The notes beneath the pieces are model-generated. The model had not been told where the DNA came from. It saw only the letters and a list, made by a program, of their open reading frames with translations, and made no database searches. From contig JBOEGF010000019.1 of NCBI GenBank assembly GCA_050633305.1, positions 194,544 to 258,543 of the forward strand: a stretch of 64,000 nucleotides of DNA, written 5' to 3'. The stretch comes from Nannocystales bacterium. Lineage in GTDB: Bacteria; Myxococcota_A; Polyangia; Nannocystales; Nannocystaceae. A program made the translations under genes and the position numbers. Positions 16,491-22,477 of this stretch are shown in pieces. Position 1 is the first letter of the stretch; every line of letters begins with the position of its first letter.

Positions 16491-19070
16491 CTAGCGAGCG
16501 ATTGCGATGTACACCCGCGGGCTCTCGGTCGCGGACACCCACGCCAGGTCCTTCTTGGCCGAGCCACCAAAGTTACCGACGTGCAGGTCGAACTGACTCC
16601 ACGCTTCGTCGGCGAAGATGTCTTGGGGGATCGCTCCGAAGTCGAAGGTTCCGTCACCCAATGATAGGCCGACGTAGACACGGTTGATAGCGCCGTCGCG
16701 AAGGTTCAGGATGAGGTCGGCGCCGTCATTGCCACTGACGTCAGAGAGGTGGGCCTCGAGGTCGGAGGGTCCGTCCTCGAGTACGAAGGGCTCACTCCAA
16801 CCGGGGAGGGGCGTAAGGCCAGAGTTGCCTCCTCGTGCAACCTTGATGTGCGCCGTGCCGTCCGTTGTCTTCACCCAAACCAGGTCGTCGGCACCGTCGA
16901 TGTCGATATCGCCGGCCAAGGTTTGATAGCCATCGTTCCAGCCTCCATCCGGTGCTGCCCCGAGGACGGGGGTCCCAGCGTGTGGTTCGAAGACATTGCT
17001 CAGCTGGACAAGTTCCGCGGGACCGCGCCGTGTTACCAAGTAAACTTGATTGGTCGCGCTGCCCTCGGGGTCGAGCAGTCGGTTCCACAACACGTCGGGC
17101 GAACCGTCGCCATTGAAGTCACCCACGAAGTCGCCAAGATAGTTGGGGGAATCGGAGCCGTGGCCCGGGTCGTCGAGGTCGTAGTAGATCTGATAGTAGT
17201 CCGCGATGTTCAGATGACCAGAACCAAGGGAGAGGTTCGACCGCGTGGCGAAGCCCGGGTTGTATTCACGACCGAACGCGAGGATGGGCTCCACCATCCC
17301 GTCTCCATCGAGATCCATCAGGTGAAAAGGGTGGTTGTTGGGTAGCGTGCTTCCGATTCTCCCCGACTGGAGCGGCTGGTAGGCGATCGACTCCTCGTCT
17401 GTGTCCGTACCTCCGCCGGAGAGGCCAACGTAGAAGGCATTGAGTCGGCCCGTGAGCGTCGGATGGGGGCCGGCGTTGTAGTTCCAGACGAGGTCCGCGT
17501 CGCCGTCGCCGTCGACGTCTCCCGCACGAAGGTTGTAGGGACTCCAGGTCGCAGGCCCGTCCTCTCCGTCGAATTCGGACAGCACGCCGCGAGAAAGGGT
17601 GCCGTCTTCGGACCCGTGCAGGACGGCGATGCGGTTGTCATCGCCGCGGTGGTTGAAGATCAGGTCGTCATAGCCGTCGCCATCGCTGTCGGCGACGAGA
17701 ACCTCGGCCACCGTCCCCATTTCGAGCTCGAAGCTCTGCGCATCAAGTGGTTCGAAGACCCCCGGGTTGGCCTGTTGTGCCTCGCAGGTCTTGACCGTGT
17801 ACTCGGTCGTCTCCGAGACCGCGGCGATGCTGTTGTCGCCGAGGTTCTTGAACGTGTACTGCAGCGGCACTGCCGTGGAGAGGGAGGCCTCGTTGGTGAA
17901 GTAGGCCGACCAGTCGCCGGATCGAATCACGCTCAGGGCATCTGCGGCGTCGCCTCCGAGGGTGGTGAGGACAATGGTCGACTCCGAGAGAATCGACTTG
18001 TGCTTGCTCGACAATGACCCCGAAACGCCCCCGGCGATCGTGTTGTACGACGCCTGCAGCGCGGCGCGAATCTCAGACTCGCTCGCGGTCGACGTCAGCG
18101 TGAAGGTCATCATGCGGCCATAGACCGCATTCGAGACGTACACGGGAAGGTTGTCGGGGCCGATGCGGCCAGCCTGCTCCAACGCTTCGAGGTCTTCGAC
18201 GGTGAAGTCGTCGGCGAAGAACGACTCCGGGCCCGATCCAGGGGGCTCGACCACGACGGTAAACATGCGCTGCGTGAACTGGACCGCCACGGTGTTGGTC
18301 GACGCATTCTGGTCGATGGACCCCGAGGCCGAGGCCTTGAACCCCAGGTATCGCCCGGAGACCCCGGCAGACAGCGCGAACTGTTTCTCGGAGTGATAGG
18401 TCTGCATTTCGAAGCTGATGGACGACGGGGTGTCGAGGTCGTTGCGCGAGGCGTTGCCTACGAGACTTCCGATGGCCGCCGCGACTTCGGCCTGGTTGGG
18501 CGCGACCTCGCGGAAGTTCTCGCCGACCGGGCTGGCGATATCCGGGATCGAGACCCGGATCGGTGCGCGCTTCGTGACGGTGAGCGGCAGGACGTCGCCG
18601 ATGCTGATGCCATCACGATGCGTTCGCCCTTGGATGAACGAGCCGGGATAGATCACGTCACGGCTGGGGTCGGACAGAACGATCGCCCCCGGATTGGAGG
18701 CCATGGAGTACGGCAGCTCGGTGCACTCGTAGCTGACGTCGCCCAGGACCTCGACCTCCCCCTCTTCGTTGATCTCCGTGACACCCTCGACGGTTTCGAC
18801 GGTTTCGACGGGCTCGGCCTCGGGGAGGGGCAGGGGCTCCTGTGCGGCCAGCGGAGGCGAGAACTCCTCCCACGTGGGGAGTTCCTGAAGGTAGACCGCA
18901 ACGTCCTCAGACTCCGGTCCGCCGCTGGCGTCGGGGTCGGGACCGGGGTCGGGGTCGGTATCGGTGCCGAGATCGACGGCAGCGTCGTCGCCGCATCCAA
19001 GGGGCAGAGTCACACAGCCCATCACAAGGACGAGACCGGAGCATAGTTTGAGATCGGAGGAGAGAGCCAC
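16491..19070 (-). CDS. Thiol-activated/cholesterol-dependent cytolysin-like lipoprotein with C-terminal FG-GAP repeats
   Basis: Lipobox LGC-GDD; IYPGSFIQG, FTQRMFTV, PVYVSNAVYGR, LGGDA, PLQYTFKNLGDNS; seven D/N.xGDG.xD-type repeats. Confidence 0.88.
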   Translation of the reverse strand: MALSSDLKLCSGLVLVMGCVTLPLGCGDDAAVDLGTDTDPDPGPDPDASGGPESEDVAVYLQELPTWEEFSPPLAAQEPLPLPEAEPVETVETVEGVTEINEEGEVEVLGDVSYECTELPYSMASNPGAIVLSDPSRDVIYPGSFIQGRTHRDGISIGDVLPLTVTKRAPIRVSIPDIASPVGENFREVAPNQAEVAAAIGSLVGNASRNDLDTPSSISFEMQTYHSEKQFALSAGVSGRYLGFKASASGSIDQNASTNTVAVQFTQRMFTVVVEPPGSGPESFFADDFTVEDLEALEQAGRIGPDNLPVYVSNAVYGRMMTFTLTSTASESEIRAALQASYNTIAGGVSGSLSSKHKSILSESTIVLTTLGGDAADALSVIRSGDWSAYFTNEASLSTAVPLQYTFKNLGDNSIAAVSETTEYTVKTCEAQQANPGVFEPLDAQSFELEMGTVAEVLVADSDGDGYDDLIFNHRGDDNRIAVLHGSEDGTLSRGVLSEFDGEDGPATWSPYNLRAGDVDGDGDADLVWNYNAGPHPTLTGRLNAFYVGLSGGGTDTDEESIAYQPLQSGRIGSTLPNNHPFHLMDLDGDGMVEPILAFGREYNPGFATRSNLSLGSGHLNIADYYQIYYDLDDPGHGSDSPNYLGDFVGDFNGDGSPDVLWNRLLDPEGSATNQVYLVTRRGPAELVQLSNVFEPHAGTPVLGAAPDGGWNDGYQTLAGDIDIDGADDLVWVKTTDGTAHIKVARGGNSGLTPLPGWSEPFVLEDGPSDLEAHLSDVSGNDGADLILNLRDGAINRVYVGLSLGDGTFDFGAIPQDIFADEAWSQFDLHVGNFGGSAKKDLAWVSATESPRVYIAIAR

Positions 19071-22477: not shown

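Follow-up and report, generated by a model that had tools for sequence, protein, structure and literature searches.

Does a kinase-activated sigma factor of family ECF43 control a pore-forming protein, and at what would such a protein be aimed? This question is raised by a locus in a Nannocystales bacterium (GenBank assembly GCA_050633305.1, contig JBOEGF010000019.1), of which we analysed a 64,000-nucleotide stretch (positions 194,544 to 258,543), hereafter the window. The genes for an extracytoplasmic function (ECF) sigma factor and for a Ser/Thr kinase with tetratricopeptide repeats (TPRs) are divergent here from a gene for a lipoprotein resembling the cholesterol-dependent cytolysins (CDCs), with 175 bp between them (19071-19245). 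A preliminary description of the sequence had placed the three genes and a gap of about 175 bp correctly. It had further proposed that the sigma-kinase pair, cued from outside through the TPR array, induces the pore former, for predation or for defence against grazers; induction by the pair is strengthened by the linkage and the sigma-clade motif described below, while the predatory role is weakly disfavoured. We consider control of the pore-former gene by the active sigma factor and kinase to be well supported by sequence comparison. The locus is probably a conserved and undescribed regulon, made of two known kinds of part and equipped with a testable promoter code.

Linkage of the cytolysin to ECF43 genes

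The window's own genome (11.0 Mb, 92% complete) holds four PF01289 (Thiol_cytolysin) genes and two genes above the cut-off of TIGR02999, a model that we take as the marker of ECF43 (150 of 237 candidate proteins were scored). The window cytolysin is the only one of the four that adjoins a TIGR02999 gene. A GTDB scan found 101 confirmed relatives of the cytolysin, from which the best 80 loci were kept, many of them on short contigs. ECF43-like sigma genes occur in twenty-nine of these loci, and all thirty-two such genes pass TIGR02999.

For the background we used the forty-eight loci that reach about 11.3 kb or more, with a single locus from each genome (thirty-two loci were left out), and counted TIGR02999 genes genome-wide. 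ECF43 is present in thirty-nine of these genomes. An ECF43 gene lies within about 9 kb of the cytolysin in 25/48 loci, compared with 0.77 expected, an enrichment of about 30-fold. The preliminary description had staked its proposal on a neighbourhood search for PF01289 beside TIGR02999 genes, and the linkage held. The linked loci are labelled Bacteroidota, Balneolota, Rhodothermota, Calditrichota, and Gemmatimonadota, as are most carriers of the cytolysin. Their arrangements vary (ten convergent, eight divergent, four upstream and co-oriented, three downstream and co-oriented). Within the window's family, a single other genome (G014) has a close sigma orthologue, at 72% identity, with four others at 45-50%; it is also the sole other genome of the family in which the cytolysin was found. 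There the genes apparently follow each other as sigma, kinase and cytolysin on the same strand; they are divided between two contigs, and the join is inferred.

Such linkage could also arise by hitch-hiking, if ECF43-kinase pairs and secreted genes merely share variable islands, the promoter-like motif of the window is a chance match and the cytolysin lies outside sigma control. Many carrier genomes are indeed rich in ECF43 pairs (as many as twenty), and the enrichment was calculated for the cytolysin alone. However, it also holds where a genome has only one or two ECF43 genes: ten of fourteen such genomes have one beside the cytolysin. The motifs upstream of the cytolysin bear on the same explanation.

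Predicted promoters

We first saw a common motif by eye in the window, in the locus of its closest named homologue (L035, 70% identical, labelled Nannocystaceae) and in Gemmatimonadota loci. To avoid circularity, the matrix for this motif (type B; TGAGGG...CGCYT, or TGAGG-N19-GCYT) was relearnt de novo from twelve Gemmatimonadota operon heads only, with the window excluded; the motif scored 146, against 69-74 in three shuffles. At 19109-19078 the held-out matrix gives 15.9 bits toward the cytolysin and 3.7 bits toward the sigma gene. L035 scores 19.5 bits and has the same 8-nt spacing to the start codon as the window. Because only 8 nt separate GCTT from the GTG start, the cytolysin mRNA is probably leaderless.

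A second matrix (type A; approximately TGAYC/TCGCC-N19-GCGT, Bacteroidota-type) was learnt de novo from seventy-five upstream regions, with the window and L035 set aside. With either matrix, the cytolysin gene or its operon was preceded by a site in 34/39 ECF43-bearing genomes and in 0/9 genomes lacking ECF43, at thresholds chosen with the scores known; the scores are bimodal, with hits at 13 bits or more and the nine negatives at 6.2 or less. Two of the five ECF43-bearing genomes without a site had shortened upstream DNA. The other three PF01289 genes of the window's genome carry no promoter motif.

The type of motif corresponds to the lineage of the sigma factor. In a quick tree of ninety sigmas, those adjacent to cytolysins fall mostly in two lineages rather than being spread over the tree. 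The window sigma belongs to an eleven-member clade whose other members come from Gemmatimonadota-type genomes (SH-aLRT 96), and most type-A-linked sigmas are in another group (twenty-seven rows, support 80); the consensus of the sigma-4 recognition helix differs between the two. Fourteen type-B sites above 18 bits occur in twelve of seventy sigma-side loci that have neither the cytolysin nor its partner gene, and several of these sites just precede genes with signal-peptide-like starts. The corresponding counts are zero in fifty-four other ECF43 paralogue loci, zero in twenty-two type-A loci, and zero to one in shuffles. A type-A scan of three region classes (54, 54, and 45 regions) gave two to three matches above 9 bits in each, with about one expected. 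The type-B counts indicate that the type-B motif belongs to the sigma clade, even where no cytolysin is present.

The window site ranks just 38th among the 22.0 million positions of its genome, which leaves some room for a chance match. Nevertheless, motif type matches sigma lineage, the motif is absent where ECF43 is absent, and the site has the expected position and strand in the window and in G014 alike. Together with the concentration of most adjacent sigmas in two lineages, this makes hitch-hiking highly improbable.

The best type-B match in the window's genome is a second copy inside the sigma gene, upstream of the kinase. Its sequence appears constrained at the codon level in thirty-four subclade genes of 63-74% GC: the Leu under the -10 element is encoded by CTT or CTA in 25/28, compared with 11% elsewhere, and the Asp under the -35 element by GAT in 27/34, compared with 35% elsewhere in the same genes. 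All seven genes with GAC likewise do without CTT/CTA, and shared descent contributes to this pattern. G014 instead has its site, of 17.9 bits, in the stretch separating the sigma gene from the kinase gene. The intragenic site is a probable source of positive feedback, by way of a sigma-driven kinase transcript. A third window site (23515, forward strand, 16.0 bits) has no evident gene behind it and was treated as chance.

Similar arrangements were seen at other loci. Two clade-B sigma genes of L149 flank a second CDC-like gene (7095-9036), which has a type-B site and encodes a 615-aa protein with a laminin-B-like C-terminal part. Another type-B site, at 11705, precedes one of the sigma genes and suggests autoregulation. 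Elsewhere in the window's genome (L287:10666-12864, on C4), the gene for a 725-aa lipoprotein has a type-B-like site of 17.8 bits, placed 9 nt ahead of its ATG. A TIGR02999-like sigma gene (68 bits) and a kinase gene, divergent from it, lie about 6 kb away; the lipoprotein is possibly a second target or part of a parallel module. The genome's second TIGR02999 sigma (L206:6553-9460, on C14), with a kinase upstream and a convergent secreted gene, is unrelated to the window clade.

Sigma factor and kinase

The window sigma factor scores 189.3 bits with TIGR02999 (cut-off 126) and 153.5 bits with Sigma70_ECF (PF07638). It carries A-T-T-A instead of DAED; QTTA is the ECF43 consensus at this position (PMC13147305). 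Thr71 (codon 19456-19458) is invariant among the eleven clade members and, by analogy, is the predicted phosphosite. EcfK has a second phosphosite in its linker, T106; in an alignment of the window's clade alone, the window sigma carries Ala in the linker at a place where V-T-L is found in two members.

The preliminary description had the sigma stop overlapping the kinase start. The overlap stands, at 14 nt with a likely TTG start at 19865, while the GTGA at the sigma stop is out of the kinase frame. Overlaps of 17-20 nt are found in the relatives L093, L149, and L171. A 1067-aa open reading frame for the kinase was rejected as a mechanical over-extension; the plausible TTG start gives 870 aa. 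The protein has Pkinase and TPR_12/TPR_10 matches (Pfam), a kinase domain at about residues 87-338 with an HLD catalytic loop and DFG, and one hydrophobic stretch (residues 376-397). A Hanks kinase at the +1 position with one transmembrane segment and extracytoplasmic TPRs is the gene arrangement of ECF43, and the window shares it. HLD was found in only four of 138 related kinase matches, three of them beside cytolysins. Non-RD loops mark the immune receptor kinases of plants.

The cytolysin-like protein

PF01289 matches residues 122-426 of the protein with 99.5 bits (cut-off 25), and FG-GAP repeats occupy the C-terminal half (Pfam). At least 388 homologues were found at E<=1e-10 among 8000 scored candidates. 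Motif columns and an AlphaFold model (mean pLDDT 81.5) were built from 120 listed homologues, each with both PF01289 and FG-GAP. In this predicted model, domains 1-3 align with pneumolysin (5aof) at Z 27.4 and a root-mean-square deviation (rmsd) of 3.2 A over 334 residues. Z scores are 23-27 across one-component CDCs and 18.8-21.4 for the CDC-like proteins (CDCLs) of Elizabethkingia anophelis. The domains hold two helical bundles of the hairpin-forming kind. In a profile alignment to the CDC 3cqf, the hairpin 1 region is free of gaps and hairpin 2 is longer by four residues.

The pore motif is M269-F270-X46-Y317-G-R, with a G372-G373 pair. YGR and GG are invariant (120/120 homologues), the first aromatic of the motif is Met in all of them, and the second position is F or Y. 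The WEWW core of the CDC undecapeptide occurs in none of the 120; domain 4 is absent as well, with a propeller beginning past residue 433. CDCLs have been delimited by an F/Y-F/Y-Xn-YGR motif and a GG pair, with a first position that varies, although Met is not among the residues listed in the available text (PMC7527733). Because YGR and GG are invariant while WEWW and domain 4 are lacking, the window protein is, by these sequence criteria, a CDCL and not a CDC. C116 and C429 are also invariant and form a probable disulfide. The lipobox Cys26, conserved in at least 90% of the 120 homologues (a regular-expression count of lipobox-like motifs gives 97/120), predicts a lipoprotein. Deep support in the cytolysin tree is weak, and we therefore claim no donor or order of events.

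The C-terminal half, which the preliminary description had missed, is a lectin-like beta-propeller in place of the cholesterol-binding domain 4. In the predicted model, residues 438-836 align with the fungal lectin PVL (4up4) at Z 25.2 (rmsd 3.2 A, 333 aligned) and with the lectin of Streptomyces UmbA4 (9oee) at Z 20.7, compared with Z of 19.4 or less for unrelated propellers. A profile of forty-four propeller sequences retrieves UmbA4 9oee (E 2.5e-30), 5mb4 (E 4.4e-20), and PAL, AAL-2 and PVL (1e-18 to 1e-20). The window propeller shares the GW blade motif of the fungal lectins. The pocket His that follows it is mostly Tyr in the cytolysin homologues, and the ligand is therefore not predictable. 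From the model, the propeller is a probable receptor-binding domain.

Neighbouring CDCL paralogues keep domains 1-3 and vary in their C-terminal domain (laminin-G/ConA-like or laminin-B-like), which suggests that the aiming domains of CDCLs are swappable. Second long CDCL genes with other C-terminal domains lie near the propeller form in L044, L045, L047, L061, L064, and L089; a ConA/laminin-G match was found in the one from L089, and none was recognised in those from L044, L045, and L064. Three neighbouring paralogues (L048:6673-7869, L063:13488-14705, L104:15357-16278) are interrupted by stops or frame changes. The propeller-bearing CDCL is probably a new effector architecture, though the supplementary species lists of PMC7527733 may include such members.

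Features and neighbours of the locus

Coordinates are collected in Table 1. The terminator-like hairpin with its T-rich tail after the cytolysin suggests a single-gene transcript; as one hairpin was found in 6.5 kb where shuffles give 3.6, this evidence is weak by itself. Overall and third-position GC content of all three genes are like those of neighbouring genes, and composition therefore does not show a recent transfer. Nothing convincing was found in a search for repeats marking a mobile element (14500-24500), and sigma-70-type promoters were not found in 16200-22700.

Table 1. Features of the locus, in window coordinates
Feature	Position	Strand	Description
CDC-like lipoprotein	16491-19070	-	859 aa; Cys26 signal peptide, acidic linker (modelled with low confidence), CDC domains 1-3, lectin-like FG-GAP beta-propeller
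CDC domains 1-3	17772-18908	-	residues 55-433; structure comparison on predicted model
Lectin-like beta-propeller	16494-17759	-	residues 438-859; structure and profile comparison
Predicted sigma-dependent promoter of cytolysin	19078-19109	-	TGAGG (19106-19102), 19 nt, GCTT (19082-19079), 8 nt to GTG
Terminator-like hairpin, T-rich tail	16353-16371	-	120 nt past cytolysin stop
ECF43-type sigma factor	19246-19878	+	210 aa; TIGR02999 189 bits
Second type-B copy, inside sigma gene	19683-19714	+	ends 150 nt before kinase start; 21.0 bits, top match in genome
PknS-like receptor Ser/Thr kinase	19865-22477	+	870 aa; N-terminal extension, kinase domain, one transmembrane segment, TPR array

Flanking reading frames at 14856-16286 (+), 22562-23551 (+), and 10074-11009 (-) are lipoprotein-like; none of these, nor one at 23621-24070 (-), has a Pfam match. 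The first two were rejected as partner or immunity genes, having no Pfam or NCBIfam match and not being among the top tblastx matches to the G014 loci, the only ones searched, which are on short contigs. A lipoprotein of the S41 peptidase family (12024-13616) could in principle process the cytolysin. In seven Gemmatimonadota loci (L068:6791-8812, L077:6967-8967, also L071, L080, L101, L106, and L107), a lipoprotein of about 670 aa, with Big_5 and PKD-like domains and a glycine-rich tail, heads the cytolysin operon behind a type-B promoter; it is possibly an adaptor, adhesin or immunity factor. The window's genome has a further single CDCL (C50:3323-5050, 575 aa) without the promoter motif.

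Proposed mechanism and role

Taken together, we think it probable that the three genes form a sense-and-secrete cassette. The extracytoplasmic TPR array of the kinase would detect a cue at the level of the envelope. The kinase would then phosphorylate Thr71 of the sigma factor, supplying the negative charge for binding to RNA polymerase, as in EcfP and EcfK. The active sigma factor would read TGAGG-N19-GCTT at two places, before the cytolysin and within its own gene ahead of the kinase, and transcription from the latter would raise the kinase level and sharpen the switch. The lipoprotein would be exported and then released or displayed. Its propeller may bind a surface glycan on a foreign cell, and its fold in the predicted model points to a beta-barrel pore of the CDC kind, most likely an oligomer of this protein alone.

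Several observations weigh against this account. An ECF43 gene is missing from the fetched flank in twenty-three of the forty-eight loci, and from the entire genome in nine cases. Genomes that are kin do not count as independent observations, and the nominal P value therefore overstates the linkage. The gene was found in only one of seventy-one other family genomes (G014, 85% in domains 1-3), many of which are incomplete. Most members of the sigma clade carry other cargo: a metagenome scan from the sigma side found the cytolysin in six and the cytolysin's partner gene in four of the best 80 of at least 600 rows, and nine of these ten loci fall in the subclade closest to the window (as read off the tree), among its twenty-five metagenomic members. 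The window site reaches only 15.3-15.9 bits; thirty-seven positions of the genome exceed it, and most of these are not followed by an obvious gene start. The type-A matrix did not recover the promoter site in the window (best 6.3 bits, elsewhere), and the choice of thresholds with scores in hand, noted above, counts on the same side. A de novo search of the divergent regions of fifty-three mixed ECF43 paralogues gave 90, compared with 88-89 in controls, and the idea of a universal ECF43 promoter was rejected. The motifs returned by the de novo searches also differ from the published prediction for proteobacterial members, GTC (-35) and CAG (-10) (PMC7826278). The catalytic loop of the kinase (20480-20503) is non-RD, with HLD and not HRD. 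On the side of the pore, no immunity or partner gene is evident in the window or at the G014 loci, the window's genome contains a long and short CDCL pair elsewhere (C10:783166-786392), and the long CDCL of E. anophelis does not self-associate and needs its short partner (PMC11169675).

The last two points are compatible with the same regulation and a different pore, in which the window protein is the anchoring 'long' subunit of a two-component assembly like the membrane attack complex (MAC), attaches to the target through its propeller and recruits a short CDCL such as that at C10:783166-784455. The characterised Bacteroidota CDCLs work as long and short pairs (PMC11169675, PMC11952106), and the C10 pair places a 429-aa short form beside a 634-aa long form. 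A long CDCL can be modelled as an oligomer even without self-association (PMC11952106). The window has no second PF01289 gene and does not show the operon of long and short forms. The intact second PF01289 genes examined near homologues are long forms (594-825 aa), four others being broken or cut, and no promoter motif was found at the C10 pair (best score 8.4 bits). As domains 1-3 are also structurally nearer to the one-component CDCs than to the E. anophelis CDCLs, we regard recruitment of a short subunit as unlikely.

A sigma-driven product that is no weapon is a further alternative: a tethered glycan-binding protein, or a pore in the producer's own envelope that serves release of material or sacrificial lysis. 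That the product is a lipoprotein, by its lipobox-like motif, would suit this, as would the varied secreted proteins of unknown function that form the other type-B cargo and the want of an evident immunity gene. Yet the pore-trigger motif is invariant, the constant domains 1-3 and variable C-terminal domains of neighbouring paralogues are as expected for target-selecting toxins, and the E. anophelis CDCLs, likewise lipoproteins, are released into the medium (PMC7527733). This makes an innocuous or self-directed product a poor candidate.

Under the sense-and-secrete account, inducible defence or competition is the likely role. A eukaryotic grazer or other eukaryotic microbe is a plausible target; it is favoured by the anti-amoeba precedent of EcfK, the closeness to CDCs and the lack of an evident immunity gene. 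Competing bacteria are also a possible target, favoured because the B. fragilis CDCLs and UmbA4 act on bacteria. Anti-grazer defence and antibacterial competition are thus about equally open. A non-lytic or self-directed role is doubtful. Killing of prey is the least favoured and seems improbable, because the gene is rare in the family and common in phyla that are not chiefly known as predators. Its rarity in the family also argues that the cytolysin is not a core predation tool there. Only tentatively would we extend the scheme to a circuit shared across phyla, in which a TPR receptor kinase (non-RD here) detects a grazer or competitor and an ECF43 sigma factor amplifies the kinase and induces a lectin-aimed, one-component cytolysin.

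Significance and relation to known systems

The preliminary description knew of no ECF43 regulon with a CDC-like effector. Our literature search likewise found no ECF43-cytolysin link, and no fusion of a CDC to a propeller, with most subscription papers outside the search. The signals of ECF43 TPR kinases and the promoters of their sigma factors are largely unknown in the accessible literature, and the cassette would make a minimal reporter, with one sigma, one kinase, two predicted promoters, and one output. It also draws attention to several hundred CDC-like proteins of environmental Gram-negatives that have a lectin-type aiming domain, unlike the cholesterol-targeting CDCs and the two-component CDCLs of the gut, and is relevant to the defences of free-living bacteria against grazers or rivals. 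Were the cross-phylum circuit true, it would add a third targeting mode to the CDC superfamily and give an ECF43 promoter code for finding the kinase signal.

Outputs described for ECF43 are an anti-amoeba type VI secretion system (EcfK/PknS of Xanthomonas citri) and polymyxin resistance (EcfP/PknT of Vibrio parahaemolyticus) (PMC13147305, PMC8999054). Both share with the window a Sigma70_ECF sigma factor with an S/T motif for DAED and a +1 kinase that has an N-terminal extension, a single transmembrane segment, and TPRs. The window differs in its HLD loop, where theirs is HRD, and in its proposed output, one neighbouring gene for a pore former. It also has a defined promoter motif, which recurs inside the sigma gene ahead of the kinase.

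Like pneumolysin and perfringolysin O, which are the best structural matches of its domains 1-3 (Z 23-27), the window protein has hairpins of similar length. Unlike these CDCs, it has neither domain 4 nor WEWW, is a predicted lipoprotein, and belongs to Gram-negative environmental hosts. With the CDCLs of E. anophelis and Bacteroides fragilis it shares domains 1-3, YGR and GG, a lipoprotein signal, and the lack of the undecapeptide; it departs from them in its propeller of about 420 residues, in Met as first motif residue, in its link to a kinase-activated sigma factor, and in lacking both a short subunit next to it and an evident immunity gene. The propeller itself has the Ca-loop blades and conserved GW motif of Streptomyces UmbA4 and the fungal lectins PVL, PAL, and AAL-2, with the fungal His after GW mostly replaced by Tyr. 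UmbA4 uses its propeller to choose target cells, through binding to teichuronic acid (PMC13274773), whereas the propeller of the window protein is fused directly to a pore-forming domain.

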